A stretch of 64,000 nucleotides of DNA from an uncultured Solirubrobacterales bacterium (GTDB taxonomy: Bacteria > Actinomycetota > Thermoleophilia > Solirubrobacterales > 70-9): contig CAWJNX010000001.1 of NCBI GenBank assembly GCA_963844395.1, positions 857,252 through 921,251 on the forward strand, given 5' to 3'. The number at the start of each line of letters is the position of its first letter. The stretch's first letter is position 1. Both the position numbers and the translations under genes were made by a program. Under the pieces are notes generated by a model. It saw only the letters and a program-made list of their open reading frames with translations. It had not been told where the DNA came from and did not search any database. Shown piece by piece: positions 11,477 to 59,565 of the stretch.

Positions 11477-11516
11477 CCGCGAATCGTAATGCCGCGAGGG
11501 AGGGGGCGGGCACCCT

Positions 11517-11665: not shown

Positions 11666-11681
11666 CACTGCTTCATCAGGG

Positions 11682-11784: not shown

Positions 11785-12418
11785 TGCGGGAGAGGTCTTT
11801 GCCTAGAAGGGCTGCTGCGGTGAGGGTCCAGCCGGCGAAGATCAGGTCTATGCCTACTAGTAGGCCGATTGCCCAGTCGGCGGAGCTGGGGAACTCGGCT
11901 AGTACGAGGATGCCGATCAGGAGGCTGGCTACGCCGTTGAGGCCTAGTAGGCCGGCGTTTTGCTGGCCGCGTGAGGCGAAGGCGATGGCGGTTCGCGTCG
12001 CGCCCATGAAGAGAAAGTAGAGGCCGAGGACGAGGGTCAAGGTCAGGGTGCCGTTGTCGGGCTCGATTACCAGCCAGAAGCCGACCAGCAGCGTGAGCAG
12101 TGCCCAGAGCAGCCGCAGTAGGACGGTGCCGAGCGAGTGTGCCGTGAAAGCGCCGGCGATCATGACGGCGCCGACGAAGATCAATACCCAGCCGATGAAG
12201 ATCGCCGTCCCCACCGAGGCGACAGCCGGCACCAGGATCGCGAAGCAGCCGGTGAGGATCGCCAGCACCCCGATCGCCAGCAGAGCCTTCCAGCTGCGAG
12301 CCAGTCCGTCACGCACTTCAGGGTCCAGCGCAGCTCCTCCCATCTCCATGCGGATGACCCTAAGTGCTCGCTCGGACGCGACCCACCATGGCCGATGCGG
12401 CGACGTCTTCCGGGGCAC
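11780..12418 (-). CDS. HdeD/DUF308-family membrane protein
   Basis: It has repeated DUF308-like TM pairs (SWKALLAIGVLAILTGCFAIL...). The true start may be the internal ATG near 12349. Confidence 0.7.
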   Translation of the reverse strand: MPRKTSPHRPWWVASERALRVIRMEMGGAALDPEVRDGLARSWKALLAIGVLAILTGCFAILVPAVASVGTAIFIGWVLIFVGAVMIAGAFTAHSLGTVLLRLLWALLTLLVGFWLVIEPDNGTLTLTLVLGLYFLFMGATRTAIAFASRGQQNAGLLGLNGVASLLIGILVLAEFPSSADWAIGLLVGIDLIFAGWTLTAAALLGKDLSRT

Positions 12419-12427
12419 TTCGGGCCC

Positions 12428-13180: not shown

Positions 13181-13247
13181 ACCGAAATAGTAAGCGCGCC
13201 CTCGGACATTTTGGAGGATGGGTCCGCACGGTAAGGTCGGGGGACAA

Positions 13248-44547: not shown

Positions 44548-44672
44548 CGGCGTCGGCGCTCCATGGCCGGGACCATAGCCGACTCTGTCGAAAGTAGGAA
44601 GTGCTACTGTCCACCGGTACTTGGCGGTCAGAACCGCCCCGCGCAGCGACCCAGCGACCCGAGGAGAGACCC

Positions 44673-45890
44673 ATGGCGACCGCGACGACCAACGGCTCGA
44701 AAGTCATCAAGCCCGACCACGAGTCGGGCGGCAAGCACTTCATCTTCAGCCAGGAGCACGAAGACCTGCGCGAGTCGATCCAGGCCTGGGTCAAGAAAGA
44801 GCTGTGGCCCCACCGCAACGAGTGGGAGGACACCTACTGGCCGACCGAGAAGATGAAGCGAGCCGGCGAGCTGGGCTTCCTCGGCCTCTGCTTCCCCGAG
44901 GAGTACGGCGGCCAGGGCGGCGACTACTACTACTCGCTGGTCCGCGCCGAGTGCATGAGCTACTCCGGCTCCGGCGGGACCAACATGGGCTTCGCCGTGC
45001 AGAGCGACATGGTCCTGCCGCCGATCCACCTGCTTGGCAGCGAGGAGCAGAAACAGCGCTACCTGGTGCCCGGGATCAAGGGCGAGAAGGTCGGCTGCCT
45101 CGGGATCACCGAGCCCGGCGCCGGTTCTGACGTCGCCGGCATCCGCACCACGGCGATCCGCGACGGCGACGAGTACGTGATCAACGGCTCCAAGACCTTC
45201 ATCACCAACGGCCCCCGCGCCGACTTCATTGTCCTCGTCGCCAAGACCGATCCCGAGGAGCGGCATGCCGGCATCACCCTCTTCGTCATCGACCTGCGCG
45301 ACGAGAACGGCGAGAAGGTGCCGGGCTTCAGCGTCTCCGCCGAGCTGGAGAAGATGGGCATGCACGCCTCCGACACCGGCGAGCTGGCCTTCGAAGACGT
45401 CCGCGTCCCGGCCGACTCGGTGCTGGGCGAGGTCGGCAAAGGCTTCTACCACATCGCCTGGGAGCTCCAGGGCGAGCGTCTCGTCGCAGCCGCCGGATCC
45501 CACGCCGGCTGCGAGCGGATGATCGAGAAGACCCTCGAGTACGCGAAGGAACGGGAAGCCTTCGGCCGTCCGATCGGCAAGTTCCAGGCGATCCGCCACA
45601 AGTTCGCCGAGATGGCGACCAAGACCGAGGCGGCGAAGCAGTTCACCTACGCGACCGCCTGGCGCTTCGCCAACGGCGAGTACCCCGTGCGCGAGATCAC
45701 GATGGCCAAGCTCTTCGCCTCGCGGGTCGGCTGCGAGGTCGCCGACGAGTGCATCCAGATCCTCGGCGGCTACGGCTACATGAAGGAGTACGAGATCGAG
45801 CGCGCCTACCGCGACGTTCGCCTCAACCGGATCGGCGCCGGCACCGACGAGGTCATGCTCGACGTGATCGGCCGCAGCTACGGGCTGTAG
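44673..45890 (+). CDS. Acyl-CoA dehydrogenase
   Basis: The ATG at 44673 follows gaggagag. It has ...GCLGITEPGAGSDVAGIRT... and ...QILGGYGYMKEYEIERAYRD. Confidence 0.9.
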   Translation: MATATTNGSKVIKPDHESGGKHFIFSQEHEDLRESIQAWVKKELWPHRNEWEDTYWPTEKMKRAGELGFLGLCFPEEYGGQGGDYYYSLVRAECMSYSGSGGTNMGFAVQSDMVLPPIHLLGSEEQKQRYLVPGIKGEKVGCLGITEPGAGSDVAGIRTTAIRDGDEYVINGSKTFITNGPRADFIVLVAKTDPEERHAGITLFVIDLRDENGEKVPGFSVSAELEKMGMHASDTGELAFEDVRVPADSVLGEVGKGFYHIAWELQGERLVAAAGSHAGCERMIEKTLEYAKEREAFGRPIGKFQAIRHKFAEMATKTEAAKQFTYATAWRFANGEYPVREITMAKLFASRVGCEVADECIQILGGYGYMKEYEIERAYRDVRLNRIGAGTDEVMLDVIGRSYGL

Positions 45891-45912
45891 GAAAGGGTCG
45901 AGTCCGTCCCCC

Positions 45913-46401
45913 GTGTCGCACGTGGACCACATCCGCTCCTACTACGCGGCGCTGAACACGGGCGATGCCGAGGCAGTCGCCTCTCACTTCACCGAGGACG
46001 CGGTCCATTACTACACGCGGCTCGGGCCGCACGATGGCGCCGAGACGATCGGCAGCTATGCCGCCCTGGCTGTGGAGAGCATCGACGGGCAGTGGTACGT
46101 CGAGAACGCGATCGAGCAGGGCGACCAGGTCACCATCGAGTGGACGATGACCTGGCGCCATCCAGAGAGCGGCGAGCGACGGCTCGACCGTGGCACCGAG
46201 TGGTTCCTCATCCGCGACGGCAAGATCGCCGAGGTGCGCGCCTACCACCACGGCGGCAAGAAGAACCCGCAGGGTGACCTGCTGGGCTTCGACCACAAGG
46301 GGCGCGGCTACACGATGCTCGAGAAATGGAAGGCGCCGACCGGCCGCACTCGCAGCGGCGCGGGTGACGGTGCAGAGAACGTGCGAGGGGTCGAGGCTTG
46401 A
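45913..46401 (+). CDS. SnoaL/NTF2-like fold protein
   Basis: ...IRSYYAALNTGDAEAVASHFTEDAVHYY...GTEWFLIRDGKIAEVRAYH has the typical SnoaL-like pattern. Confidence 0.7.
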   Translation: MSHVDHIRSYYAALNTGDAEAVASHFTEDAVHYYTRLGPHDGAETIGSYAALAVESIDGQWYVENAIEQGDQVTIEWTMTWRHPESGERRLDRGTEWFLIRDGKIAEVRAYHHGGKKNPQGDLLGFDHKGRGYTMLEKWKAPTGRTRSGAGDGAENVRGVEA

Positions 46402-47576
46402 CGGTCGTCAAGGACAGTGGGCAGCGCGCCACCCTGCCGCCCTTCAACGAGGAGCACGAGGAGCTTCGCGAGACGGTGAGCCGCTTCGTCGCCAGGGAGA
46501 TCGCGCCCAACGTCAACGAGTGGGAGGCGGCGCGCGAATTCCCCCGCGAGCTGTATGGGCGCTGCGCCGAGGTCGGCTTCCTGGGCCTCAAGTTCCCCGA
46601 GGAGTACGGCGGCCAGGGCGGCACCCACCTGCACGACGCGGTATGGGTCGAGGAGCTGGCCCGCTCGGGCGGCTCGGGCGGCGTCGCCGCCGGCCTCAAT
46701 GCCCACACCTCGATCGCGCTGCCGCCGATCTTCAACTTCGGCACCGAGGAGCAGAGGCAGCGCTGGCTGGTGCCCGGGATCGCCGGCGAGAAGATCGGCG
46801 CGCTGGGGATCACCGAGCCGGGCGCCGGCTCCGACGTCGCCGGCATCTCCACCTTCGCCAAGCGGGTCGACGGCGGCTACGTCGTCAACGGCTCGAAGAC
46901 CTTCATCACCAACGGCGTCCGCGCCGACTTCCTCGTCTGCGCCTGCAAGACGACCCAGGAGGGCAGCCACCACGGCATCTCCTTCCTCGTCCTCGAGCGC
47001 GAGATGCCCGGCTACGAGGTGGCGCAGAAGCTGGAGAAGATGGGCTGGCACTCCTCCGACACGGGGGAGCTCGCTTTCACCGATGTAGAGGTCCCGGCCG
47101 AGAACTTGCTCGGGGTGGAGAACGAGGGCTTCAAGCAGATCATGGCCAACTTCGCCTGGGAGCGGCTGCTGATGGCGATCGGCGCGGTCGGCGCGATGCA
47201 GCGCCTGATCGAGATCAGCGTCTCCTACGCCCTCGACCGCGAAGCCTTCGGCCGCCCGATCGGCAAGTTCCAGGCGATCCGCCACCAGGTGGCGGAGATG
47301 GCGACCAAGGCCGAGGCCGCCCGCGCCCTCACCTACAACTCCCTGCGCCTCTTTCACGAGGGTCACGACTGCATCCGCGAGGTCACGATGGCCAAGCTCG
47401 TAACCCAGCGCGCCGTCCTGGAGATAGCCGACCAATCCCTACAGATCCACGGCGGCTACGGCTACATGCGTGAGTACGGCATAGAGCGAGCCGTCCGCGA
47501 CGCCCGCCTAGGCCCAATAGGCGGCGGCACCGACGAGATCATGAAGGAGATCCTCGGCAAGCAGATGGGGTTGTAG
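46398..47576 (+). CDS. Acyl-CoA dehydrogenase (its last 12 codons lie inside the attL repeat)
   Basis: It has ...GALGITEPGAGSDVAGIST... and ...QIHGGYGYMREYGIERAVRD...MKEILGKQMGL*. Confidence 0.9.
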   Translation: MTVVKDSGQRATLPPFNEEHEELRETVSRFVAREIAPNVNEWEAAREFPRELYGRCAEVGFLGLKFPEEYGGQGGTHLHDAVWVEELARSGGSGGVAAGLNAHTSIALPPIFNFGTEEQRQRWLVPGIAGEKIGALGITEPGAGSDVAGISTFAKRVDGGYVVNGSKTFITNGVRADFLVCACKTTQEGSHHGISFLVLEREMPGYEVAQKLEKMGWHSSDTGELAFTDVEVPAENLLGVENEGFKQIMANFAWERLLMAIGAVGAMQRLIEISVSYALDREAFGRPIGKFQAIRHQVAEMATKAEAARALTYNSLRLFHEGHDCIREVTMAKLVTQRAVLEIADQSLQIHGGYGYMREYGIERAVRDARLGPIGGGTDEIMKEILGKQMGL

Positions 47577-47584
47577 GGATTAGC
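47539..47584. repeat. attL core (46 bp)
   Basis: It is an exact duplicate of 53007-53052. It contains the ACAD codons MKEILGKQMGL plus the stop. Confidence 0.85.
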
Positions 47585-47621
47585 AGGGGTTTCCTGCGAA
47601 TCCTCCGCCTCGTCTGAGGCA

Positions 47622-47644
47622 GGCGGACACGATTCGGACACATC
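47622..47644. repeat. Candidate integrase arm-type site (left)
   Basis: ggcggacacgattcggacacatc matches tgcagacacaatccggacacatc at 52869-52891 at 19 of 23 positions, in the same orientation. Confidence 0.4.
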
Positions 47645-48755
47645 GCGCCGCGCCTGCTCGATCTGATCCTCGGCAGACACGCGCTCGGCGATGTCGAACT
47701 CATCGAAGACGTGTGCGTAGACGTCGAGCGTCATGGTCGGCGAGTGCCCGGCCTGCCGCGCGACCTCGACCACGCTGCGGCCTTCGTGGATCAGGAGCGA
47801 AACGAAGCTGTGGCGCAGGTCGTACGGGCGAGCCCCCTCCAAGCCGACGGCGCGACAGGCGGGTGCCCAGGCGTCACGGTGCCAGGTCTGCCAGGCCGGG
47901 TCGTTCCAGACGCCGCCTGAGCCGTTCGGGAACAGGAGCGCGCCATCGTCGGCCTGGTCAAGCGAGCGCCGCCACCCGGATAGGTCGTCGGCCAGCGGGG
48001 CCAGCAGGCGAACCGTCCGCGCCTGACCGGTCTTGGTCGTCTTGACGCCGCCCTGGCCGTCAGCGGCCTTCTCGACCAACAGCGTCCGCTCGCGCACATC
48101 GCCCCAGCGCAGCGCAAGCGCCTCCTGGGGGCGCAGCCCGGCGTAGGCGAGCAATCCGGACCAGCGCCGCATCCCGAGCGCCGTGCTTGCGCCTCTTGGC
48201 GGCGACAGCGCGCAGCTGCTCCACGGTAAGCGGCGACAGCGGTCGCACCTCTCGCTGCCTTCGGACCTTCGGCTTCTGCACTGCCTTGACCGGGTTGTGG
48301 CCGATCCGCCGCCACTCGACCGCTCGCCGCAGCACGCCCTGGAGAAGCGCAAGCGCCCGGTAGATGGTCGGCTGCCCCACCCCATCGGCTTCCAGCTCGG
48401 CCCGGAAGCGCTCGACAACCTCCGGCGTGATCGCGCTGAGGCGCATCGAGCCGAGCCGCGGCAAGACGTGTCGATCCCAAAGGCCCGCGTAGCTGCGAAG
48501 AGTGCGCGCCGCAAGGTTGGGAACCGCGTAGAGCTTCCACCACTCCTGCGCGAAGTCGGTGAGCGTTTCCCGCCCGCCCGTAAGCAAGTCCAGGTCACCG
48601 GTGCGCTTGCGCCGCACGACCTCGGCATCGAAGGCATCCGCGTCGCGCTTGCGGCCGACCACTTTCGAGCGAGCCCGCCCCTGCTCGTCGCGCCAGCGCA
48701 CCCGCCAAACGGCCCCGCCCTTCCGCTCAACCCGTTCGACGCTCATCCACCCCGC

Positions 48756-49040
48756 CTAGCCTTCCGCGCTCTCATCGAGCAGGACGCGCAGGCTGCCCTG
48801 CGCCCCAGCGGTTCGACCCCGAGATCGCCGAGGTGTTGACGGATCTGCTCCCCGCGTTTCCTCGGCGATCCACCGCTCCAGCTCTGCCGGATGCACGCGA
48901 AGCCGATGACAGAGTCGCGCCGCCCGCAGCTCTCCCCGAGCAATCGCCCGGTAGACCGCCCGACGCGAAAGCCCGCAAGCGCGGGCAACGTCCTCCGGCG
49001 ACAACATGGGCTCGATCTCGATGTGGTTCTCGTCGCGCAT
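48756..49040 (-). CDS. Excisionase-family / MerR-like HTH DNA-binding protein
   Basis: It has ...MLSPEDVARACGLSRRAVYRAIARGELRAARLCHRLRVHPAELERWI.... It lies 9 nt upstream of the integrase start. Alternative starts are at 49007, 49064 and 49133. Confidence 0.7.
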   Translation of the reverse strand: MRDENHIEIEPMLSPEDVARACGLSRRAVYRAIARGELRAARLCHRLRVHPAELERWIAEETRGADPSTPRRSRGRTAGAQGSLRVLLDESAEG

Positions 49041-49396
49041 TTCCTCTGCACCCCACCTGTCCATTGAGAGCGCCAAATGCATCGGCTCGGACACGAAATC
49101 GACCGACCGCCAGCGAGATCGCCGCGCGGCCATACAGGCGGCCGCCGCACGGCGAAGCCGTGCCAAAATCGGCCGCCAGCCGTCCGGCGAAAAAGAGCCG
49201 CCCCAGGCGTCAAACCGGAGGGTTCCCAGTGTGTCGTGCTGTTGAGTGCGGGTTACAGGGACGCTTTGAGAGGTCCACGGCAGGCTCTCGGGTGCCTTGG
49301 TCGAGTCTTGCTCTGATGCTTTTCTGGTTTGAACTTGGGCTGGGCGATCTGGATTGCTTCTGCTTGGTTGCTGCTGATGGTTTCTGGCATCGCCTC

Positions 49397-49690
49397 TCAT
49401 TGCCTCGCCTCGGGCCGAGGCGGGAGCGTGAACGCTCCGGCCTGAGTGCTGCCGGCCTTCCAGACGATCCCGTCCAGCAGATCGCAAGGCGAGACTTCCA
49501 GGGCACCGGCGAGTTTGATCAGCGTGTCGATTCGGGGCACGCGAGTTCCCCGCTCCAGCAAGCTGATCTCCGTGCGATGGAGAGAGGCGCGGATGCCAAG
49601 CTCCTCCTGGCTGAGACTGGCTCGTTCTCGCGTATGGACGAGATTTGCAGCGAAACGTCGAGCCACCTCCATGGTCATTTGTCTCTCCAC
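49397..49690 (-). CDS. Xre (Cro/CI)-family HTH regulator
   Basis: It has ...LVHTRERASLSQEELGIRASLHRTEISLLERGTRVPRIDTLIKLAGAL. Confidence 0.85.
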   Translation of the reverse strand: MERQMTMEVARRFAANLVHTRERASLSQEELGIRASLHRTEISLLERGTRVPRIDTLIKLAGALEVSPCDLLDGIVWKAGSTQAGAFTLPPRPEARQ

Positions 49691-49971
49691 AGCCGCTCGA
49701 AATAGACCGCGGAGCGCGTCGGCATGACGAGGACTCCATTACTGCGCAGAAGGCCGACGGCCGTGAGGTCCCGCACGGCACGGGCGAGCGCATCGCCTTC
49801 CGCGAAGTCCTCGGGGTCCTCACAGACCTCGGCGGCAAGCTCGGGGAACGTGAGGTGGATCGGATGCAGCGAGAGGACGTGCCGTAGAACGGCGCGCTCG
49901 GTCCGTTCGTCTTCTTGGGCTGGGGTAAGCGGATCGCCTGAGCCGCGATCCGTAGGCTGGGAACAGGACAT
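49675..49971 (-). CDS. Hypothetical winged-helix-like protein co-transcribed with the Xre regulator
   Basis: 98 aa. ...ERAVLRHVLSLHPIHLTFPELAAEV...ARAVRDLTAVGLLRSNGVLVMPTRSAV. It overlaps the downstream xre by 16 nt. Confidence 0.6.
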   Translation of the reverse strand: MSCSQPTDRGSGDPLTPAQEDERTERAVLRHVLSLHPIHLTFPELAAEVCEDPEDFAEGDALARAVRDLTAVGLLRSNGVLVMPTRSAVYFERLWRDK

Positions 49972-50225
49972 GGGAGCTGAACCCCCTGCGTCTCAGGCGG
50001 CCCGTCGTGTTTGCGCACGGCGGGTCGCCGCTTCTTGGAGCCGGCAGGTCGATACCGTTCCCGCTGCGGCCGGCCTGGTGAGAGCTATGCCGGTCGCCAC
50101 GGGGCCGGTGTTCACGCACGCGGCCCCACTTATGTCCCGCAGAGCCTAGCAAAGCCTGCGTACATGTTTGTAGAGCGATGTATGCAGCAGCCTTTAGCGC
50201 TGACGCTTCTGAGAACGTGCAGCCG

Positions 50226-50462
50226 ATGCGCCGCTCAGAGCGACCTCAACCTGCCCTTGGCGAGGCCGTTCGCCAGCTTCGTGAGAAGCGCGGCGCAACC
50301 CAGGAGGCCATCGCCCGCGACGCCGGCATCACGACCGCCACCCTCTCCCTGATCGAGCGCGGCCAGGCCAACCCGACCTGGGACACCATGAAGAAGATCG
50401 CCGCCTCTCTCGGCTCCTCCATGGGAGAGCTAGGCAAGCTCACTGATGGCCTCGAGAACTGA
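50226..50462 (+). CDS. Xre-family HTH regulator (divergent partner of 49397-49971)
   Basis: The internal ATG gives MRRSERPQPALGEAVRQLREKRGATQEAIARDAGITTATLSLIERGQANPTWDTMKKIAASLG. Confidence 0.8.
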   Translation: MRRSERPQPALGEAVRQLREKRGATQEAIARDAGITTATLSLIERGQANPTWDTMKKIAASLGSSMGELGKLTDGLEN

Positions 50463-50565
50463 GCGGACCGCTGGTGGGAGTACGAGCGGGTAGGCCAGAT
50501 TTGGGAAAGGAGGCGGAATCATTTGGTTCCGCCGCGACATCGGTCAAGATACGTATGGGATTTCG

Positions 50566-51063
50566 ATGGATGAGAAAACTTTCAAAGAACTAGCCGGCCG
50601 CTTGAAAAAGGCGAGCGTTGTGATCGAGAAGCTCGACCCGGTTATCCGAGAGGACGCGTGGAAGATGTTGCGCCCATTTGTCAGACCCGACGCGAAGGAT
50701 TCAGGGTCGATCCGCTCGGAGAACGGAGGCGCTGGCGGCGAAGGACCTCCGCCGCCGGATTCGAGCGAGGACGACTTGATCGAGAAGTTCGAGAGCGAGA
50801 AAGAGGCGGAGAACCTTTATCTGACCCTCGCCATTCTCTACAAGCGTCATGGAAAGGGGCCATTCTCTCTGGACGTGATCCGCGCCGCAGGGACGTCACT
50901 CAATCTTTCGCTGCCTGAGCGGCCCGACACGACCCTAAGGAACAGCACGAGAAAAGTCGTGCGTAAACAGGGGAACGGCTACAAGGTTCAGCCTGGTGGC
51001 GAAAAGTGGCTCAAAGAGAAATATGGAGTCGCTAAGGGCAAGCAGCCTATCTCGGATGACTAG
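50566..51063 (+). CDS. Hypothetical protein P1: N-terminal helical segment, Gly/Pro/acidic linker, wHTH-like C-terminus
   Basis: 165 aa and A/T-richer than the surroundings. The C-terminus LYLTLAILYKRHGKGPFSLDVIRAAG...VVRKQGNGYKVQPGGEKWL resembles the N-terminus of P2. Confidence 0.65.
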   Translation: MDEKTFKELAGRLKKASVVIEKLDPVIREDAWKMLRPFVRPDAKDSGSIRSENGGAGGEGPPPPDSSEDDLIEKFESEKEAENLYLTLAILYKRHGKGPFSLDVIRAAGTSLNLSLPERPDTTLRNSTRKVVRKQGNGYKVQPGGEKWLKEKYGVAKGKQPISDD

Positions 51064-51797
51064 TGACGCTTGCGGAGTTCTTGCATCCGACGCGGCGTAG
51101 CTCGAAGCGAGAGCAGATTCTTGCCACGCTCTTTTACTTCAAACATCATGCTGGCCGAGATGACGCGACTGTCCGCGAAATTCGAGAGGGCTTGGTCCAA
51201 GCGAATATCCCTCGCTCTCGCAAAGCAAACTTGAGCGACGCCTTGGCTGGTGCAATCCCGCTTGTAGACAAATTGGGCGGTGGGCATTGGCGGATCACCA
51301 AAAGCGGTGAAGATCATGTCCGCGAGGAGCTGGCCCTTCCGGACGAACTGCCGCAAGTTCAAGAGGACGTAAGCACGCTGCTGCATTTGTCCCGCTCACT
51401 CGCCGACGAAACGGTGCAAGAGTATGTAGATGAGGCAATTAAATGCCTTCAGGCCGGAGCCAGACGTGCTGCCGTCGTATTCCTATGGAGCGGCGCGGTT
51501 CATGAGATGCGTGAGCGCGTATGGAACAACGGCAAGCGACAGATTGAGGAAGCCCTTCAGCAGCGGAATCCGAAGGCTCGATTCCGACGGAAGGACGACT
51601 TTTCAGTCGTGAAGGACAGCGCCCTCATTGAGCTCACCGGCGATTTTTCGATTTTCGACAAGTCGCAGAGGAAGCGATTGGCTGAGGGTCTCGACCTCCG
51701 AAACGATTGTGGGCATCCGGTGAAGTATCGGCCTCGTGAGAAGAAGGTATCGAGCTTCATCGAGGACGTTCTGCAGGTGGTGTTTGACGCAACCTGA
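51063..51797 (+). CDS. Hypothetical protein P2: wHTH N-terminal domain + HEPN-like C-terminal domain (R213-NDCG-H218)
   Basis: The GTG start overlaps the P1 stop (TAGTG). The C-terminal half is ...AIKCLQAGARRAAVVFLWSGAVHEM...LAEGLDLRNDCGHP..., a helical bundle with an Rx4H motif at nt 51699-51716. Confidence 0.65.
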   Translation: MTLAEFLHPTRRSSKREQILATLFYFKHHAGRDDATVREIREGLVQANIPRSRKANLSDALAGAIPLVDKLGGGHWRITKSGEDHVREELALPDELPQVQEDVSTLLHLSRSLADETVQEYVDEAIKCLQAGARRAAVVFLWSGAVHEMRERVWNNGKRQIEEALQQRNPKARFRRKDDFSVVKDSALIELTGDFSIFDKSQRKRLAEGLDLRNDCGHPVKYRPREKKVSSFIEDVLQVVFDAT

Positions 51798-51836
51798 GGG
51801 AACTTGCTTGACAGAGAAACGAGGCGGGGCCGGCGT

Positions 51837-52007
51837 TTAGCCGGACCCGTTGGTCCTCTGGCCGAGCCTCGTGACGTCGCTCGCCTGGCCCTCGCGGAGA
51901 CGACGCTTAACGCGCTTGGCGTACTCCTCCGGGGAAATCTCCTCCCGGAGCAGGCGGAGATACTCCTCGGAGGGGCCGGTGGGTACTGCGCCGCCGTTCG
52001 TTGCCAT
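51837..52007 (-). CDS. Small basic helical protein downstream of the GAF gene (hypothetical)
   Basis: The sequence is MATNGGAVPTGPSEEYLRLLREEISPEEYAKRVKRRLREGQASDVTRLGQRTNGSG. It lies 48 nt after the GAF gene stop on the same strand. Confidence 0.35.
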   Translation of the reverse strand: MATNGGAVPTGPSEEYLRLLREEISPEEYAKRVKRRLREGQASDVTRLGQRTNGSG

Positions 52008-52055
52008 TGTCCTTCGCCTTTCCGTTCCTGGTCTCGCCATAAGGACCTCCAGAGT

Positions 52056-52814
52056 CTAGTGCTCGCCCCCGTCGTCATCTGATGTCGGCCTCGCCAAGCT
52101 CCAGACGACGCCGATTATCGAGCCGAGAACGTCGATGTACATCAGCTCTGATGGGAGAAACGCGTGCTTCTTCGTAGACAGAACGCTCAAGATCGCGACG
52201 ATCTCGCTCCCCACCCGCACCGGCGCGCATGCCAGAGAGCCATACTCCCGGCCGGGGCGTGCCTGCGGATGGGGTGTCCACCGCGGGTCTGCCTCGACGT
52301 CGTTCGTCCATAGCATCTCGCCGCCGACGAGCACGTGACCAGCGAAGGAACCTGTAGTCGGAAGCTCGAACTTTTGGCGGGCCTCCAGCGAATGTCCAGC
52401 CTCGAACAACATCGAGAAGCGGCCGCCTTCAGGCAGGAGCACCGAGAGCCGGATCTCCTCTCCTTTGCGCTTGGGCGCCACGAGCCACTGTCGGGCGGGA
52501 ACGAGAATCCCCCGCTCGATGAATGCCTCGGCGCTGACGCCGGGGATATCGCCGGTGACGATCTTCTGGAGCGCTTCGAGAATCTCGCGGACATGGTCAA
52601 CGTAGAACGGCTCAAGGTTCTCTCCGGCCTCCGCGATCCTGCCGGCAATGAATGCGACTGGGAGGAAAATAGCCACGGCGATAAGAACCCAAAGGGGAAC
52701 TGGCGCATCGAGGATGCCGGTAGCGAGAGATAGCAGCGTGATGACGCCACCGACAATCAGAGCCAGGATCACACCCCGGGCGATCTCACTAGGCGATGGA
52801 AGCACGGACGGCAT
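52056..52814 (-). CDS. Membrane-anchored GAF-domain protein (2 TM + GAF, no output domain)
   Basis: The N-terminus has GVILALIVGGVITLLSL / LWVLIAVAIFLPVAFIAG. A GAF-like fold follows: ...SFAGHVLVGGEMLWTNDVEADPRW...GSLACAPVRVGSEIVAILSVLS. Confidence 0.7.
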   Translation of the reverse strand: MPSVLPSPSEIARGVILALIVGGVITLLSLATGILDAPVPLWVLIAVAIFLPVAFIAGRIAEAGENLEPFYVDHVREILEALQKIVTGDIPGVSAEAFIERGILVPARQWLVAPKRKGEEIRLSVLLPEGGRFSMLFEAGHSLEARQKFELPTTGSFAGHVLVGGEMLWTNDVEADPRWTPHPQARPGREYGSLACAPVRVGSEIVAILSVLSTKKHAFLPSELMYIDVLGSIIGVVWSLARPTSDDDGGEH

Positions 52815-52868
52815 GACCGGTGATCCTAGTCCTGGGCTCGGCGTTCACCAGAGGCTGCCAACCTCAGA

Positions 52869-52891
52869 TGCAGACACAATCCGGACACATC
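52869..52891. repeat. Candidate integrase arm-type site (right)
   Basis: See 47622-47644. It lies 116 bp inside attR. Confidence 0.4.
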
Positions 52892-53006
52892 AGCCGGGTC
52901 GCCTGCGATCACGCCCGATCATCCGTCTCGCCCTCAAACAAGCTCATTTGCGGGGAGTCCTCGTCCTCGGATGATCCGGCGTGCCCTCCCGTGCCATGCT
53001 CGGGGC

Positions 53007-53052
53007 TCATGAAGGAGATCCTCGGCAAGCAGATGGGGTTGTAGGGATTAGC
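53007..53052. repeat. attR core (46 bp)
   Basis: It is an exact duplicate of 47539-47584. Confidence 0.85.
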
Positions 53053-53054
53053 GG

Positions 53055-53408
53055 GTGTTCGCACGCGGCCATCAACCAGCCCTCGGCGACGCCGTCCGCC
53101 TGCTCCGCGAGAAGCGCGGCATGACCCAGGAAGCCGTAGCCCAGGCCGCCGGCATCACGACCGCCACCCACTCCCTGATCGAGCGGGGCCTAGCCAAGCC
53201 AACCTGGGACACCGTCAAGAAGATCGCCGCCGCCCTTGGCTCGTCGATGGGCGAGCCAGGCAAGCTCACTGACGACAAGCTCGACACCGGCTGCGCGCCG
53301 ACGTCGCGCAGACGGTTACCCGAAAACAGCTACGCGACCTGGACTGTCTTGTGGCCGGCTTCTTCGCGCAGGTTGAACTTCTCCCGTGGCCGACCGGACG
53401 GGGTGTAG
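53055..53408 (+). CDS. Xre-family HTH paralog abutting attR (probably 5'-truncated, with a 3' extension)
   Basis: The GTG lies 3 nt after the att core. By hand count, nt 53070-53276 versus 50244-50450 match at 173 of 207 positions. The tail runs 79 nt into the convergent DUF2188 gene. Confidence 0.6.
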   Translation: MFARGHQPALGDAVRLLREKRGMTQEAVAQAAGITTATHSLIERGLAKPTWDTVKKIAAALGSSMGEPGKLTDDKLDTGCAPTSRRRLPENSYATWTVLWPASSRRLNFSRGRPDGV

Positions 53409-53563
53409 ACGATGACCGTCCCCTTGTCCTGTTCGAGGAGCACCGCTCGCGCCTGGGCAACGGCTTCTTCGAGCCGCGGGTGCGTCGAAAGCACCTTCTT
53501 CTCCCTACGGACTTGCCACATCCCCGAAGGCGAATCCTTCACAACGTCGAATTCGGTAGCCAT
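53330..53563 (-). CDS. DUF2188-like small protein
   Basis: The ATG at 53563 gives MATEFDVVKDSPSGMWQVRREKKVLSTHPRLEEAVAQARAVLLEQDKGTVIVYTPSGRPRE. Confidence 0.65.
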   Translation of the reverse strand: MATEFDVVKDSPSGMWQVRREKKVLSTHPRLEEAVAQARAVLLEQDKGTVIVYTPSGRPREKFNLREEAGHKTVQVA

Positions 53564-53636
53564 GCGTTCCTTTCGTCGTTGTACAGAAAGTTTAGTTCCT
53601 GTGGCGGCGTCTGAAGGGCTTGCAAGAGACGACGTT

Positions 53637-54962
53637 CTACTGTGCGAGTTGAGCATTTCCGGGCTCGAAGAACCGCGCGTACAGTTTCCGCACCTGACCC
53701 TCCGTAAGCCCGGCGAGATAATCGCAGATCAGCCTGTGCAGGTCACCCTGACTGTCTTCGGCCGAACGCAGCTGAGGCCGCATTCTCCGCGGAAAGAGCA
53801 GGAAGCGGTCACGGGGAGGTTCGCGTAGACAGCTGTCGTACAGCGCTTGGAAGAGCCGGTCGAGGATCTCGTGTCCCTTGAAGAAGACGCCAGCCGTGAT
53901 CTCGCTGCGCAGCAGGTACTCGACCGTGATCGCCTTCAGCACCTGGTTGCGCACCCGCATCTCTTTCGGAATCTCCAGCCTGTAGTCGAAGAGGGTCTCT
54001 CCCGGACCGATCGCAACCACGTCGCCGGCGAGGACGAACTCGTTGATGAAGCCCCGCGAGAGCTCGCGGACGACGTCCAAGGGAATCTCAGGCGCCCACT
54101 TCGCGAGCGCGTTGTAGAGCTCGCCGAGGATCTCGGTCACTTCCTCCTCGCTTGGGACTTCCTCATCGACCCAGACCCTTGGCGCGTCGGCGATGCTTCT
54201 GTAGACGGTCTCGACAAACTGGTCCGACTTCCAGGTCGCGGGCAGCAGCAGGCCGCTGGCGATCCCGTCCTCGAGGTCGTGAACCGAGTAGGCGATGTCG
54301 TCCGCCCAGTCCATCAGCTGGCAGGGCAGCGTGCGCGGCGGCCGGTCCACCGGCTTCTGCAGCAGTCCTTGGTCAGTACCGTCGTAGAGCCACTTCACCA
54401 TCTCGGGTCCAGTGTCGTCGGCGTAGAGGAACTTCCCCGCCTTCGTGTCCCCGTTGCGCTCGTAGGGGTACTTGAGCAGTGCCAGCAGCGTTGCCCTGCA
54501 GAGGTCGAGACCGAGGTAGTCCCAGTGCTTGGGCTCGATCCTGGTGACAATGCGGAAAGTCTGCGCGTTGCCCTCGAAGCCGCCATGGTCCTTCATCCGC
54601 GCGTTGAGCGTTTCCTCTCCGGTATGGCCAAACGGAGGGTGGCCAAGGTCGTGCGCCAGGCAGGACGCCTCCACCAGGCTCATGGGCACTCCGAAGCGGC
54701 CAGCAAGGCCGCGGCCGATCTGCGAGACCTCGATTGAGTGGGTGATCCGGGTGCGCAGGAAGTCAGCTGCGTGGGGCTCGAAGATTTGCGTCTTGCCCTG
54801 CAGGCTCCTGAAGGCAGCCGAGTGAATGATACGGGCACGGTCGCGCTCGAACGGGCTGCGCGAATCCTTGTCGTCCTGCGCCGGCTCGTCGATGTTGTAG
54901 CGGGCAGTTTCCCGCTCGGAGAAGAAGTCGAACTCCTCAAGTCCCCCCACGCTTGAATCCAT
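53637..54962 (-). CDS. dGTPase-family (HD-domain) deoxynucleoside triphosphate triphosphohydrolase
   Basis: The ATG at 54962 gives ...SPFERDRARIIHSAAFRSLQGKTQ...RITHSIEVSQIGR...LAHDLGHPPFGHTGE.... Confidence 0.85.
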   Translation of the reverse strand: MDSSVGGLEEFDFFSERETARYNIDEPAQDDKDSRSPFERDRARIIHSAAFRSLQGKTQIFEPHAADFLRTRITHSIEVSQIGRGLAGRFGVPMSLVEASCLAHDLGHPPFGHTGEETLNARMKDHGGFEGNAQTFRIVTRIEPKHWDYLGLDLCRATLLALLKYPYERNGDTKAGKFLYADDTGPEMVKWLYDGTDQGLLQKPVDRPPRTLPCQLMDWADDIAYSVHDLEDGIASGLLLPATWKSDQFVETVYRSIADAPRVWVDEEVPSEEEVTEILGELYNALAKWAPEIPLDVVRELSRGFINEFVLAGDVVAIGPGETLFDYRLEIPKEMRVRNQVLKAITVEYLLRSEITAGVFFKGHEILDRLFQALYDSCLREPPRDRFLLFPRRMRPQLRSAEDSQGDLHRLICDYLAGLTEGQVRKLYARFFEPGNAQLAQ

Positions 54963-55092
54963 ATCACCTGGAGAGCGCCTTGGGCGTTCCCTTGCGGAAA
55001 TAGGACGATGCCGGGAATCGACGACAGATGTCGAATTGGAACGCGCACACGCTTCCCGCGGTCTGGAGCGGGTAATAAGCGAAGGAGCGATC

Positions 55093-55278
55093 ATGCCTGA
55101 AAGCCGGCAGAACATCTCGATTACGGCGCCCCTGGTGATACGGCGCGCCGATTTCTTCGCCGCGCTCGCCTCCCCTCAGGTGCAATCGACCCTCGCCCAC
55201 GCGCGGGCGATCCTTGCTGCGGAGCGCTTCCCCCCACGAAACGGTCGCCGTGCCCGCGGGGGTTTCTCGCGACCCTAG
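55093..55278 (+). CDS. Small ORF (61 aa) with a strong SD, convergent with the GNAT-like gene
   Basis: gaaggagcgatcATG. The sequence is MPESRQNISITAPLVIRRADFFAALASPQVQSTLAHARAILAAERF.... Third-position GC is high. Its stop and the GNAT stop share one CTAG. Confidence 0.5.
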   Translation: MPESRQNISITAPLVIRRADFFAALASPQVQSTLAHARAILAAERFPPRNGRRARGGFSRP

Positions 55279-55853
55279 ACGGGCGGCTCGCGGATCGGAT
55301 ACCAGAGGCGCGGCGGGGCGCCGGCTGGCTGATCCTCCGGTGCTGCACGCTCGAAGTGGAAGCGCCGCATCCAGAGTTTCTCGGCTGTTTCGTCGTCGTG
55401 GGGGGTGACGACCATAGCCGTGGCCTCTTCGTCCATGCCGATCGAGACCGCGTACTCGAAGAGCTGGGTACCGAAGCCGACCGGGCTGTTGGAGCTGCGT
55501 GCGATCCACGAGACGTCGACGGCGATCTCCAGCTTGTCGGTGGGAACATCCCCGTCGGAGTCCGGAGCGAACCTGAACGGTATGAAGCCGAGCACACAGA
55601 AGGCGAGCAGCTCGTTGCGGGGAGTGAGATCGAGCACGGTGAGCAGCGGCAGTTCGGGCGAGCGCAGCTGACAGCGGAGCCAGCTGAGCGCGTCCTTGGC
55701 GGCATCGAAGGGCAATGGCTTAAACTTCTCGATCGCGGCAACGAGAGTCGGGTCAAGATCGCGTGTCAGGGTGCCGGCGGGAAGTCGGACCTTGAAGGTC
55801 TCCACGGCCTCCATAGCGCTGCTGCCACTCACTGTGATCCCTCTCTCGCCCAT
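55275..55853 (-). CDS. GNAT-fold acetyltransferase-like protein
   Basis: It has ...LAFCVLGF...VSWIARSSNSPVGFGTQLFEYAVSIG...AMVVTPHDDETAEKLWMRRFHF. An SD (aggaagg) lies before the ATG at 55853. Confidence 0.6.
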   Translation of the reverse strand: MGERGITVSGSSAMEAVETFKVRLPAGTLTRDLDPTLVAAIEKFKPLPFDAAKDALSWLRCQLRSPELPLLTVLDLTPRNELLAFCVLGFIPFRFAPDSDGDVPTDKLEIAVDVSWIARSSNSPVGFGTQLFEYAVSIGMDEEATAMVVTPHDDETAEKLWMRRFHFERAAPEDQPAGAPPRLWYPIREPPV

Positions 55854-56070
55854 GCTCGCCTTCCTGCCCCGATTCTCGAATTCCGCCGCCGGCCTGCGAG
55901 CACTTGCGCATCGCTGACTGGATGTGAAGAAAACTCAGCTGATCTTTACTCAGCCGTCCCTTTGCAAACGACCGCCGTTTACAAGTCTAGCCGATCGAGT
56001 GTCGGCAACGGTACGCCTGTGCGAGGACCAAGGTACGCCGAAGAATCGACTGGGCGGTGCTCGGCTGCGG

Positions 56071-56265
56071 TCAGCCGGCGAGGCCTTGTCGGCGGCGGAG
56101 GCATTGCGCGTGCGCTTCGCTGTTCATCACCTGCACACCGGGATGGTCGAGGTTCGAGACAAAGGACGAGATCGGGATGTTCATGGACCCCGAGCGCCGT
56201 TGCAGGGCCTCCTGCGGCGACGCATAGACCTCGCTCCTCCCAGAGGGCTTGTCCAAAATCGTCAT
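56071..56265 (-). CDS. Small hypothetical ORF (64 aa) with a strong SD in an A/T-richer gap
   Basis: gaaggagtcagccagATG. The sequence is MTILDKPSGRSEVYASPQEALQRRSGSMNIPISSFVSNLDHPGVQVMN.... I recognise no family. Confidence 0.4.
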   Translation of the reverse strand: MTILDKPSGRSEVYASPQEALQRRSGSMNIPISSFVSNLDHPGVQVMNSEAHAQCLRRRQGLAG

Positions 56266-56618
56266 CTGGCTGACTCCTTCGATTCGATTGACATGTGCCT
56301 GATTTCCGAATCGTCGGAGGCACCGCTCCGACCCGGTGCGCAAGATAACAGACCGTTCCCATGTAGTTTTCTGAGACGCCCTGTCTACGCTCGATGGGCC
56401 TGGTTGGGGAAGTCTGGACGGGGAGGTGGGGACGACGCCTTCGCTAGCCGAGCTCGCTGACCTCTATGGGACCGACAGGAGCCCGGTCAGCCCCAGCCCA
56501 ACTACCCGACGGGAATTCCGGCGGGTTTCGTCCCGCAGGGAATGGCTTGAGCCGCTTCGCGGCTAGCCGGTGGGGAGCGTAGGATCGTCGGGAGGCAGGC
56601 CCGACGAAAGGAGATCCG

Positions 56619-56921
56619 ATGCTCTGTGCATTGACCGTTCGCAAGCTGAAGCCCGGCTCGATGGAAGACTTCAAACGGGCGTTCGTTCCGCAGGACACCT
56701 CGAATGTCCCCTCGGGCTGGAAGAAGTTCTACGCGCTGCAGAACGTCAACAACGAGAACGAGGTGATCACCTTCGGCCTCTTCGACGGCACGCTCGAGGA
56801 GCTGCGGGCCGGGCAGCAAGGCGGCGAATACGACGAGCGGCGGGCGGCGGGCGACGAGTTCGTCGAATCGGTCGGCGCCGACGGCGTCTTCGATGTCGTC
56901 GAGGAACGCTCGATGGACTGA
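56619..56921 (+). CDS. Small ferredoxin-like (ABM/Dabb-type) protein, hypothetical
   Basis: aaaggagatccgATG. It is 100 aa with an alternating beta/alpha pattern. The functional assignment is weak. Confidence 0.55.
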   Translation: MLCALTVRKLKPGSMEDFKRAFVPQDTSNVPSGWKKFYALQNVNNENEVITFGLFDGTLEELRAGQQGGEYDERRAAGDEFVESVGADGVFDVVEERSMD

Positions 56922-58014: not shown

Positions 58015-58826
58015 GCCCGGGGGGCGAGCGGCTCAGGGCCCGCGTTCATCTCAATCTGATCGACAGCTCGCGCCAACTGTTCGAACTCGATCCCGGTGCT
58101 GTGGTCGAGGCCGGAGACGGATGGTTTTTCGGCGCCGGTCGCTCACCGCATCCGGCAATCTCCAACGCGGCGTTCCGCACCGATGACGAGCTCGATTCCG
58201 AAGAGTTCCTGGAGCGCGCGAGAGCCTTCTTTGAAGGCCTGGGAAGGGGGTTCAGCGTCTGGCTGCGGCACGAGGAGCTCGCCGACCGCGACCTGCTCGC
58301 CGCGGCCGAGGCGGCGGGGCTGACGCAGGTTCACGAGATGCCGGAGATGGTGCTCGGCGAGCGGCCCGAAGAGCGACCGCTCCCATCGGGGGTCGAGCTG
58401 CGGCGGGTCAGCACGGCCGGCGAGGCGGAGGACTACTGGCGGGTGGCGACCCTCTCCTATGCGAGTCTCGGCTTCCCACCGGGAATCTTCGACTTCTACG
58501 AGGATCCCACCGGCCTCCTCGCCGAGAACGCGGCTGCCTTCATCGCGTACCTCGACGAGAGGCCCGTTTCGATCGCGATGACGATCGTCAGCCACGGCGT
58601 CGCGGGCATCTACTGGGTGGGAAGCCTCGAGCAGGCTCGCGGCAAGGGGCTGGGATGGGCGCTGACCGCCACCGCCACCAATGCCGGCTTCGATCTCGGC
58701 GCGGACGCCGCCTCGCTGCAGGCCTCGGTAATGGGCCGACCGATCTACGCGGCAATGGGCTACGAGGCGATCTATGACTACCGGCTGTTGATGTCAGCCC
58801 CACCCGAGGCCGCGGATACCGCCTGA
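58011..58826 (+). CDS. GNAT-family N-acetyltransferase
   Basis: It has ...GIYWVGSLEQARGKGLGWALTATATNAGF...PIYAAMGYE. Confidence 0.75.
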   Translation: MSPGGERLRARVHLNLIDSSRQLFELDPGAVVEAGDGWFFGAGRSPHPAISNAAFRTDDELDSEEFLERARAFFEGLGRGFSVWLRHEELADRDLLAAAEAAGLTQVHEMPEMVLGERPEERPLPSGVELRRVSTAGEAEDYWRVATLSYASLGFPPGIFDFYEDPTGLLAENAAAFIAYLDERPVSIAMTIVSHGVAGIYWVGSLEQARGKGLGWALTATATNAGFDLGADAASLQASVMGRPIYAAMGYEAIYDYRLLMSAPPEAADTA

Positions 58827-58840
58827 ACGGTGGTCGGCGC

Positions 58841-59497
58841 TTAGGGACGCAGGCGGAAGGGCGGATAGCGATCCGTGACCAGGGCAAAGGCGTAGCCGAT
58901 CACTCGATTCTGCCAGCGGTAGGTGCCCTCTACGAACTCGAACAGGCCACGCGGGTAGCGGCCGGTGAAGAGAATCGCGAACCAAGCGATGACGACCGCG
59001 AAGAACGCCCCGATGAAGAGGAAAAAGAGGACGACGTAATGGGGAATCGCTAACAGCCACTTGACGATCGGCATGCCGCGCCCGAGCTCTGCCTCGACAT
59101 CCGGATAGGGGAGGTCGAGGTGGACAGACTGACGCTCGTCGGTTGAGGGGTAGCGATCGTCCATCAGCGATATGTAGACGCCGATCCGATTCGTAAAGCG
59201 GAGGATTTCGAGGTTCCAGTCGAACCACCAACGCGGATATTTCTTGCGAAAGAGGATCATCAGGCCAGCCGGCAGGGCGACCAGGCCGAGGCCGGCGCCA
59301 CCCCACAAGCTGGTGTCGAGGTGAACTTCGCTCGACCATGATCCGCCCACGACCAGGGACGCCAGGATCAAGATCGGGATCACGGTGAAGATCCGGAAGA
59401 AGGTCGTGAGGCGGTTCAGCGTGCGGTCCGGGTAGTCGACCGCGAACGTGACGGGGTAATCCGAGGGTCCAACCGCTGGATTCGGCGACATCTCCAT
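58841..59497 (-). CDS. DUF4389-like membrane protein
   Basis: It has ...TFAVDYPDRTLNRLTTFFRIFTVIPILI... and ...LLAIPHYVVLFFL...FTGRYPRGLF. Confidence 0.7.
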   Translation of the reverse strand: MEMSPNPAVGPSDYPVTFAVDYPDRTLNRLTTFFRIFTVIPILILASLVVGGSWSSEVHLDTSLWGGAGLGLVALPAGLMILFRKKYPRWWFDWNLEILRFTNRIGVYISLMDDRYPSTDERQSVHLDLPYPDVEAELGRGMPIVKWLLAIPHYVVLFFLFIGAFFAVVIAWFAILFTGRYPRGLFEFVEGTYRWQNRVIGYAFALVTDRYPPFRLRP

Positions 59498-59565
59498 TTA
59501 CAGGCTCCTTCTCCTGGGACTGGGGCTTCGGTCTTCGACCGGCAGGCCTCAAGCCCTTCCCGTCA

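Follow-up and report, generated by a model that had tools for sequence, protein, structure and literature searches.

A 64,000-nucleotide (nt) stretch of DNA from an uncultured Solirubrobacterales bacterium (contig CAWJNX010000001.1, positions 857,252 to 921,251; hereafter, the window) carries a small integrative island, here called A, at the 3' end of an acyl-CoA dehydrogenase (ACAD) gene, next to the remains of a second island, B. Comparison with related genomes indicates that A belongs to a family of 4- to 10-kb site-specific tyrosine-recombinase islands that lie in the ACAD 3' end (the last ~38 bp) of soil Solirubrobacterales. We consider it probable that the model as a whole is right: an ACAD-targeting island family, with A inserted beside a decayed B and transfer dependent on a helper.

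Attachment Sites of Island A

A preliminary description of the window had proposed an integrative element bounded by a perfect 46-bp direct repeat. The window has exactly two copies of the 46-mer, TCATGAAGGAGATCCTCGGCAAGCAGATGGGGTTGTAGGGATTAGC, one at 47539-47584 and one at 53007-53052, both on the + strand and with zero mismatches. Shuffled sequence gave 0 matches, and there is no third copy in the window, where the next best match is 27/46. Similarity between the two copies extends to 53 nt at 96% identity. The features of the target gene and the attachment sites are as follows (aa, amino acids).

46398-47576, + strand: acyl-CoA dehydrogenase gene (ACAD2, 392 aa), the target gene; Pfam Acyl-CoA_dh_N, _M, and _1
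47539-47584, + strand: attL copy of the repeat; functional core ~47539-47578
47626-47641, + strand: left arm-type motif GACACGATTCGGACAC, within the integrase 3' coding region
52873-52888, + strand: right arm-type motif GACACAATCCGGACAC, at equivalent positions in related loci
52909-53006, - strand: right arm, which in the circular attP form encodes the integrase's last 32 codons and TGA stop
53007-53052, + strand: attR copy of the repeat; core 53007 to ~53046, with 53045-53059 the stub of a second element's integrase end

The left copy supplies the TAG stop of the ACAD gene, as had been reported, but not 12 codons: it includes the last 11 full codons plus two bases of the preceding Ile codon. 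The repeat also proved to be longer than the attachment site itself. In 25 related loci, attL/attR identity within each genome usually stops at or just beyond the stop codon, giving a core of only ~38 to 40 bp; the extra bases of attR in the window are the stub of a second, decayed island. Among the related loci compared, the string GGATTAGCAGGGGTTTCC follows the ACAD stop only where an integrase gene follows, yet in the window it is also present after attR. Thus, attR adjoins a 15- to 16-nt stub of another element's integrase end, and bases 53045-53059 (GGATTAGCgGGtGTT) are a copy of the integrase-proximal end of an element, not host sequence.

Each arm has one copy of a 16-nt motif, GACACRATYCGGACAC, in direct orientation. 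These are the only two copies in the window, versus 0.15 expected by chance, and they lie at fixed distances from the core and at equivalent places in relatives. From their positions, the copies are likely arm-type sites.

The target is a protein-coding 3' end, as the preliminary description had it. A tRNA or tmRNA target is ruled out, the sole tRNA gene of the window being that for tRNA-Gln at 13248. The region 44601-47576 consists of a SnoaL-like gene between two paralogous ACAD genes with 72 to 82% nucleotide identity; the attachment site is in the second of these only.

A Family of Islands in Related Genomes

An ACAD protein search found orthologues with 87 to 96% amino acid identity in 80 Solirubrobacterales genomes, nearly all of them metagenome assembled; an exact-sequence look-up of the ACAD protein returned no record. 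In 25 of the 80 species, a second copy of the ACAD 3' end (31 to 46 of 46 positions matching) is found 0.5 to 9.8 kb downstream of the gene. The other 55 have a single copy. In four or five of these (L011, L048, L049, L055, and probably L056; loci and contigs are designated by L numbers) an integrase end is at the gene, and either the contig ends or attR is absent from the fetched flank. At least 29 of the 80 species are occupied. About 50 have a single copy and no integrase, and their downstream sequences are unrelated from one species to another.

The ends of the islands are conserved. The left end is common to ~16 species, which have a homologue of 47585 to ~49240 (the integrase gene, xis, and upstream sequence) with 72 to 87% nucleotide identity directly after the ACAD gene; in these ~16 species the integrase 3' end adjoins the core at the same base. 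The right end, a 137-nt homologue of 52870-53006, is found directly before the second copy in at least 20 species. The middle is variable, 83 of the 178 open reading frames (ORFs) called being singletons after clustering, and the backbone of the family consists of integrase, Xis, and sometimes XreM, C2, and XreP (described below). This polymorphism for presence or absence, together with conserved ends and a variable middle, bears out the proposal of an integrative element at the ACAD 3' end. The relatives do not all share the same content, most of them having one copy of the repeat and no integrase.

The closest relative, L001 (96% ACAD identity), is syntenic with the window on both sides and has neither integrase nor repeat. 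Instead, it carries at 11270-13187 a different 2-kb insert, with ORFs of 410 and 263 aa that have no Pfam match. This insert shows that the position following the ACAD gene is itself a hot spot. A few pairs of species have integrases that resemble each other more than their ACAD genes do (e.g., 93.4% versus 91.7%), and the correlation between integrase and ACAD similarities is weak overall (Spearman 0.38). The comparison fits some horizontal spread of the islands.

Gene Content of Island A

Element A comprises the window sequence between the repeat copies, 47585-53006, and is ~5.5 kb long. Its features are as follows (HTH, helix-turn-helix).

47462-48746, - strand: tyrosine integrase pseudogene; SAM-like part 48746 to ~48160, catalytic part ~48160 to 47462 in the other frame
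48756-49040, - strand: Xis, excisionase-type, HTH_17 (Pfam), 94 aa
49122-49185, - strand: conserved three-tier hairpin, 64 nt, 81 nt upstream of the xis start codon
49221-49236, - strand: conserved box CGACACACTGGGAACC (CGACACACTRBGAACC), 35 nt 5' of the hairpin
49397-49690, - strand: XreM, Xre-family HTH regulator (Pfam HTH_3 and HTH_31), conserved in the module
49675-49971, - strand: C2, a 98-aa backbone protein in the same orientation as XreM; its cluster has members in 10 elements and many metagenome modules
50178-50462, + strand: XreP, divergent Xre-family regulator (Pfam) heading the cargo side
50566-51797, + strand: cargo ORF pair, 165 aa and 244 aa, the stop codon of one overlapping the start codon of the next; lowest G+C of the element (0.56)
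52056-52814, - strand: cargo, 252-aa GAF-domain protein (Pfam GAF_2)

The Pfam matches agree with the preliminary identification of an excisionase-type HTH protein and of a divergent Xre/Xre switch, now the XreM/XreP pair. C2 has no match in Pfam, PDB, or PADLOC, and its structure predicted without an alignment (predicted local distance difference test score, 54.8) was too poor for a fold search. Between xis and XreM there is a noncoding stretch of ~350 bp. In the divergent Xre/C2 intergenic region, a direct repeat, GTGTTYRCGCACG, occurs at 50007-50019 and 50108-50120, 101 nt apart; these repeats are weak candidates for operators. A scan of the switch region for sigma-70 promoters and terminators gave nothing above the shuffled expectation.

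The Integrase Gene Spans attP

The window integrase has the domains Phage_int_SAM_3 (8.7e-11) and Phage_integrase (4.2e-13) in Pfam, the N-terminal SAM-like domain in ORF 48746-48060 and the catalytic domain in the ORF ending at 47462. The tyrosine recombinase box residues GLRPQE, DLRHSF, GHS, and VYAHV can be seen in the translation. The nearest annotated integrases are no more than 33% identical. That the integrase reads outward across attL, as had been described, is confirmed by the domains and by the frame itself, which crosses the core and has its stop at 47462, antisense within the ACAD gene. The frameshift in the integrase gene and its spanning of attP are additions to the earlier account.

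The two domains are in different frames because of a 1-nt insertion at ~48158-48162 (CTGGTCCGG versus CTGAT-CGG). The integrases of relatives are intact, in a single frame, and ~425 residues long. Among metagenome contigs, L185 and L190 share a 2-nt deletion and L109 has a 1-nt insertion. Different frameshifts in separate copies mean that decay of the integrase is recurrent. A shared or programmed frameshift is ruled out, the insertion in the window being unique and other copies having different lesions.

In the integrated state, every copy of the integrase ends in ...ISSVPPPIGPRRASRTARSMPYSRM, which is read from the antisense strand of the ACAD gene. If attP is rebuilt (right arm, core, and left end), the frame ends differently. 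The integrated form has 25 ACAD-antisense residues where the attP form has 32 residues from the right arm, a conserved and acidic tail that reads S[PS]EHGTGGHAGSSEGxDSPQMSLFxxExDDRx before the stop. The attP-form tails of 17 of 17 elements align without gaps, with TGA at the same codon, and the swap affects only residues beyond the catalytic tyrosine. Variation among codon positions in the tail is weakly periodic (entropies of 12.8, 17.1, and 19.8 bits), with 750 synonymous versus 1525 nonsynonymous codon differences. Selection acting on the protein tail is plausible from these alignments, and the integration-dependent swap of the C terminus may change integrase activity.

A Conserved Hairpin Upstream of xis-int

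The hairpin upstream of xis has an apex, GCACGGC-TTC-GCCGTGC, that is identical in 16 island copies, and two lower stems that vary and covary. In these 16 copies, 90% of the hairpin cells are paired, versus 30 to 52% in slid controls, and 13 cells are compensatory; none of 500 shuffles scored as high. A search of metagenomes with the apex pattern found at least 120 soil contigs with the hairpin (L081-L200). An alignment of 106 hairpins among the matches listed, fitted to a covariance model, had 93.4% of cells paired versus 37 to 54% when slid, double changes in 15 of 22 hairpin pairs (248 cells), and a covariation score of 0.304 versus 0.078. A search of Rfam with 46-58 kb of the window, at E values up to 1, gave two chance-level matches, neither of them at the hairpin.

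What follows the hairpin falls into two groups, and the counts given here are for the matches listed. In 110 of 122 cases the hairpin is upstream of an ORF on the same strand, at a median distance of 82 nt. About 68 hairpins precede recombination modules: 10 precede the Xis of this family, 25 precede other small HTH_17 proteins, and 33 precede a different integrase, 363 aa long and 30 to 35% identical to that of the window family. These modules are usually laid out as XreP, then divergently C2-XreM and the hairpin. About 30 hairpins precede genes of the types found in the leading regions of conjugative elements: a mixed ParB-like/ArdC-like cluster (~20), DprA (4), DACNV-domain proteins (2), and singletons. 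In these contigs, ssb and ardA are the next genes downstream, and almost all genes are co-oriented with the hairpin. Several contigs have two hairpins. In L199, the hairpin is 37 nt after the gene for a 1125-aa TrwC relaxase.

The box is present in 73 of the 120 hairpin contigs among the matches listed, but in only 5 of the 46 of those that have no integrase module. Possible roles for it are those of operator, promoter, or additional recombinase site. The hairpin apart, the noncoding DNA of the islands has no convincing similarity to conjugative-type contigs.

Several functions for the hairpin were considered and set aside. It is unlikely to be an origin of transfer (oriT), since two copies, each shortly before a gene, are present in several contigs; being multicopy and so placed, it looks like a promoter or priming signal instead. 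It is unlikely to be the terminator of the XreM operon, its distance to XreM being ~200 to 600 nt and its distance to the downstream gene nearly constant. A sigma-54 promoter (TGGCAC-N5-TTGC) is ruled out because the GC element stands one position away from where it should be; Actinobacteria generally have no RpoN. The resemblance to a -35/-10 promoter, read from the alignment, is weak: TTCGCC at the apex as the -35, a spacer of 16 to 17 nt, and a conserved bulged TAYGG. Hexamers in the 3' arm of the hairpin would set a start site near the hairpin base, if they are used as such.

Cargo and Mobility Functions

With the exception of the GAF domain, the cargo of element A has no match in Pfam, NCBIfam, or PADLOC. 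The GAF protein has a hydrophobic N-terminal region, seen in the translation, that may span the membrane. Relatives, in contrast, carry recognizable defense genes, which with toxin-antitoxin pairs make up most of their cargo: Gabija (GajA, 1.7e-64; GajB, 4.5e-92), SIR2-HerA (HerA, 1.7e-166; SIR2, 2.5e-85), PDC-M68B (4.8e-177) with a partner that has an ABC-3C C-terminal domain, and PDC-S06 (6.5e-159). Because its relatives carry defense cargo, the cargo genes of A are candidates for unknown defense genes. Other cargo in relatives includes an SNF2/NOV_C protein, an E1-like enzyme with a multiubiquitin protein, an IS481-type transposase, and toxin-antitoxin pairs (PIN_3 and Xre-RES). In 5 or 6 elements, a gene for a PIN_3 toxin (141 aa) and a small upstream partner are beside the right arm (L065, 18454-19235; also L017, L058, L062, and L069); this pair is probably an addiction module.

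We scanned the window element and the ORFs of ~25 relatives (the larger ones and a few small ones) for mobility genes. No replication initiator, primase, relaxase, FtsK-like translocase, secretion component, terminase, or capsid gene was found in any member scanned, which extends to the relatives the earlier observation that A has no replication, conjugation, or capsid genes. Searches by tblastn with TrwC, ArdC, ParB, DprA, SSB, and ArdA gave nothing in the window or in the 80 loci, and the integrase has no relatives among IMG/VR viral contigs. With no replication, transfer, or packaging genes in any member scanned, the islands would have to rely on a helper to move. The description that suits the family best is that of a minimal defense-gene shuttle.

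Island B and the Decay of Islands

To the right of attR is a decayed island with no right att site left.

53053-56495, no strand assigned: decayed island B
53055-53408, + strand: 5'-truncated XreP paralogue, 85% identical over 201 nt to the copy in element A
53330-53656, - strand: DUF2188 gene (domain match)
53637-55115, - strand: anti-phage-type HD-domain dGTPase (PADLOC, 6.7e-113; NCBIfam, 324 bits, under the model's 400-bit cutoff)
55275-55853, - strand: 192-aa ORF with no assigned function
56071-56343, - strand: 90-aa ORF with no assigned function
56619-56921, + strand: first conserved chromosomal gene on the right, 100 aa; synteny with L001 restarts at 56577

The content of B (53053-56495) was found in none of the 80 related genomes. 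The conserved sequence upstream of the first chromosomal gene starts at ~56496, and no right-arm remnant closes the island, local alignment to 55800-56700 being no better than to control regions. The G+C content falls from ~0.68 to 0.71 in the flanks to 0.56 to 0.63 over the cargo and stays low beyond attR until ~56.7 kb. Another low-G+C patch (~0.60) is found to the right of the islands at 58750-59500.

Decay is common in the family: at least 10 loci have stubs and remnants that lack an integrase. In L044, a 119-nt integrase stub is followed by Xre. L089 (3901-4528) resembles the window, with a 98-nt stub of an integrase gene and part of an Xre gene after its attR. L194 (731-8658) is a tandem array with three att copies, composed of an element and a 1.4-kb remnant without an integrase. 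In several loci only the right arm is kept.

From these sequences, the simplest history has three steps: B would have integrated first, A would then have entered the attL of B, and B would subsequently have lost its integrase, xis, XreM, C2, and distal end. The perfect repeats mean that A is a recent arrival. Unless an assembly error accounts for the frameshift in its integrase, A is probably stranded.

Integration, Control, and Transfer

The comparison of loci shows site-specific integration, in which the integrase recombines attP, made up of the core with a GACACRATYCGGACAC arm motif on each side, with the ACAD 3' end. The element brings its own last 11 codons and stop, so the ACAD gene is regenerated and stays intact. 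The order of the control module, XreP and then divergently C2-XreM, box, hairpin, and xis-int, is observed; when the element is integrated, the Xre/C2/Xre module would hold xis-int off, and the C-terminal swap would, by analogy with Mx8, modulate the integrase. To our knowledge, the means of transfer of most genomic islands is not known. Here, transfer would be via a helper, and single-stranded entry through a TrwC-type conjugative element appears to be the most likely route. On the incoming DNA, xis-int would have in the hairpin a single-strand promoter or a signal for priming.

Leading-region genes in other plasmids are transcribed from hairpin single-strand promoters (Frpo/ssi) during DNA entry (PMC11541004). 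The contexts of our hairpin suggest single-strand entry by conjugative hitch-hiking, and they lend some support to what had been an inference in the preliminary description, that the island is a hitch-hiker. We put forward tentatively a fuller reading, in which the hairpin is the actinobacterial counterpart of Frpo/ssi and is placed before xis-int in many gene-poor islands, namely, those of the ACAD-targeting family and of a second one with an integrase only 30 to 35% identical. The islands would enter as single-stranded DNA on a TrwC-type helper, xis-int would be expressed early, and the C-terminal swap would afterwards damp the integrase. The recombination genes would be expressed from the incoming strand before repressor is made, amounting to zygotic induction of integration, and the anti-phage cargo would then be delivered. 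If the hairpin does work on single-stranded DNA, this would explain how gene-poor islands become established and would extend single-strand promoters to the Actinomycetota. If none of this holds, an ordinary site-specific island remains.

A number of observations weigh against the model or parts of it. The integrase in the window is broken, so the mobility of this copy today is doubtful. No oriT, relaxase, or helper element was found in the window or the 80 loci. A look among relatives for an empty attB produced the ~50 species with a single copy and no integrase, but none in which the flanks abut cleanly, the spot after the ACAD gene being hypervariable in all species across the 80 loci. There was also no circular or excised form and no repaired attB; junctions of right arm, core, and integrase gene were found only in tandem arrays (L089 and L194, both metagenome contigs). 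Given the weak codon periodicity, conservation of the integrase tail could reflect DNA arm sites instead of protein. As for the hairpin, the invariance of the apex across the metagenome set is a consequence of the search pattern, and its promoter-like hexamers are weak. The control based on downstream ORFs was not stringent, since 63 of 112 hairpins among the matches listed also have a divergent ORF nearby. The hairpin had 0 matches in IMG/VR viral contigs and only chance-level partial matches in PLSDB plasmids.

The main rival to single-strand entry is that the hairpin controls xis-int and some plasmid genes in duplex DNA, either as a leader or attenuator in the RNA or as an operator bound by a protein, in which case transfer by transformation, vesicles, or generalized transduction would all be possible. 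We regard this as quite possible. The covariation suits RNA as well as it suits single-stranded DNA; 81 nt before the xis start codon is where a 5' untranslated region would be expected; the box just upstream, which is specific to xis-int, could hold the real promoter or operator; and the -35/-10 resemblance within the hairpin is weak. Weighing against it is the company the hairpin keeps. Its other downstream genes (ParB-like, ArdC, and DprA, with ssb and ardA next) are typical of leading regions, where in other plasmids single-strand promoters drive such genes (PMC11541004), the genes of those contigs are almost all co-oriented, and one copy follows a TrwC relaxase gene by 37 nt. In addition, the + strand of the window, which is the template for xis-int, folds well as a DNA hairpin (-26.1 kcal/mol, z = -2.7).

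A separate question is whether the integrase frameshift is an assembly or sequencing error, so that A is functional and mobile now. The perfect 46-bp repeats imply that A inserted recently; C2, Xis, and the two Xre genes are intact in A, as are the integrases of relatives; and the source of the window is probably a metagenome-assembled genome, a setting in which indel errors of one base occur. However, the extra base is outside any long homopolymer, other copies have independent frameshifts, one of which is common to L185 and L190, and decay is common in the family. We think such an error unlikely.

Helper-dependent transfer could also mean that the island is a phage satellite, of the PICI (phage-inducible chromosomal island) or PICMI (phage-inducible chromosomal minimalist island) type, induced and packaged by a helper phage. 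Small size, an integrase and xis with a divergent Xre pair, defense cargo, and insertion at a housekeeping gene are all PICMI/PICI-like (PMC10803314), and no transfer genes were found. Yet none of the ~25 members has a replication or primase gene, terS, or a capsid-remodeling gene, neither the integrase nor the hairpin has relatives in IMG/VR, and the hairpin is shared with ParB/ArdC/DprA and TrwC contexts, not with phage genes. This lifestyle is less likely than an RNA leader or operator and, in our judgment, improbable.

Finally, the repeat might be no att site but an ACAD end duplicated locally at a recombination hot spot, where an integrase with no connection to it happens to reside. The spot is indeed hypervariable even without an integrase (e.g., in L001), but this reading is highly improbable and is effectively refuted by the comparative data: the same-base junction in ~16 species, the right arm adjoining the second copy in at least 20, arm motifs at fixed distances, ends that are conserved while content varies, and the three-copy tandem array in L194.

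Comparison with Known Systems

Integration into the 3' end of a protein-coding gene is well known for other elements, and ICESt1 has fda as its target. Since such targeting is already known, it is not unusual as a sole feature. The ICESt1/ICESt3 accretion model for ICEs (integrative conjugative elements) with cis-mobilizable elements (CIMEs), and IMEs (integrative mobilizable elements), share with the present family a site-specific tyrosine integrase. In ICE/CIME accretion a newcomer lies beside a resident without an integrase (PMC5704250), as in the window, L089, and L194. In contrast to the ICE/CIME systems of streptococci, the target gene, integrase lineage, and host phylum are different here. 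The relaxase, oriT-associated gene, and conjugation module of ICEs and IMEs are absent, so by gene content the family is neither, and remnant B, which has no distal att site, is not a mobilizable CIME. Actinomycete ICEs combine an int-xis module with a replication gene and an FtsK/SpoIIIE-type Tra gene; neither a replication nor an FtsK/SpoIIIE domain was found in any member scanned.

The Myxococcus phage Mx8, with IntP and IntX, likewise has attP inside the integrase frame. Here the last 32 codons are swapped for 25, whereas integration of Mx8 replaces a much larger C-terminal part of its integrase. The Sulfolobus SSV-type integrase genes are split by integration; in the present family, only the tail beyond the catalytic tyrosine changes. 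In both Mx8 and the SSV viruses, the integrase gene spans attP and acquires a new 3' end after integration, and for Mx8 this alters the properties of the integrase after integration (PMC6070905, PMC4383910).

PICMIs and other minimal satellites are similar in having a few kilobases of DNA, an integrase and a small excision regulator, defense cargo, a housekeeping gene beside the insertion site, and a need for a helper (PMC10803314). To excise and replicate, PICMIs require three core proteins (PMC10803314). In contrast, no member of our family has a replication protein, there is no link to viral contigs, and the hairpin is common with conjugative-type regions. The genes that mark phage satellites (PICI, PICMI, and P4-like), a replication initiator or primase plus packaging or hijacking genes, were found in no member.

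Islands of the iOriT type have no relaxase or mating-pore genes, are proposed to ride on conjugative elements, and concentrate defense genes (bioRxiv 10.64898/2026.01.13.699239). Our family resembles them as integrative islands with defense cargo and neither relaxase nor mating-pore genes. The difference is that the shared noncoding signal is multicopy in conjugative contigs and upstream of genes, making it a candidate promoter or priming signal, not an oriT. As with Frpo/ssi, the hairpin is directly upstream of co-oriented genes of leading-region type, with several copies per element (PMC11541004). It differs from Frpo/ssi in having no sequence similarity, a shorter length (~64 nt), weak -35/-10 elements, an actinobacterial host, and a function that is predicted. 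We found no description of such a hairpin before an integrase operon in the literature searched.

Taken by itself, the island does not represent a novel kind of element, because 3'-end targeting, tandem accretion, and defense cargo on small islands are all established. What is new is the host lineage, the target gene, the extreme gene poverty throughout the family, and an attP-spanning integrase, which is rare among bacterial elements. Also new is a structured hairpin that leading-region-type genes have in common with recombination operons, a connection for which we found no description in the literature that we searched. The family, common in abundant and almost uncultured soil bacteria, is about as stripped down as islands get: an integrase, an excisionase, a three-gene switch, and cargo. 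As a defense shuttle with a hot spot, it is a natural place to find new anti-phage genes, for which the unannotated cargo of A and of several relatives provides candidates. The integrase gene is a second, bacterial example of one that spans attP, integration rewriting the C terminus of the enzyme, and the hairpin links the recombination operon of the islands to the early-entry genes of conjugative elements.

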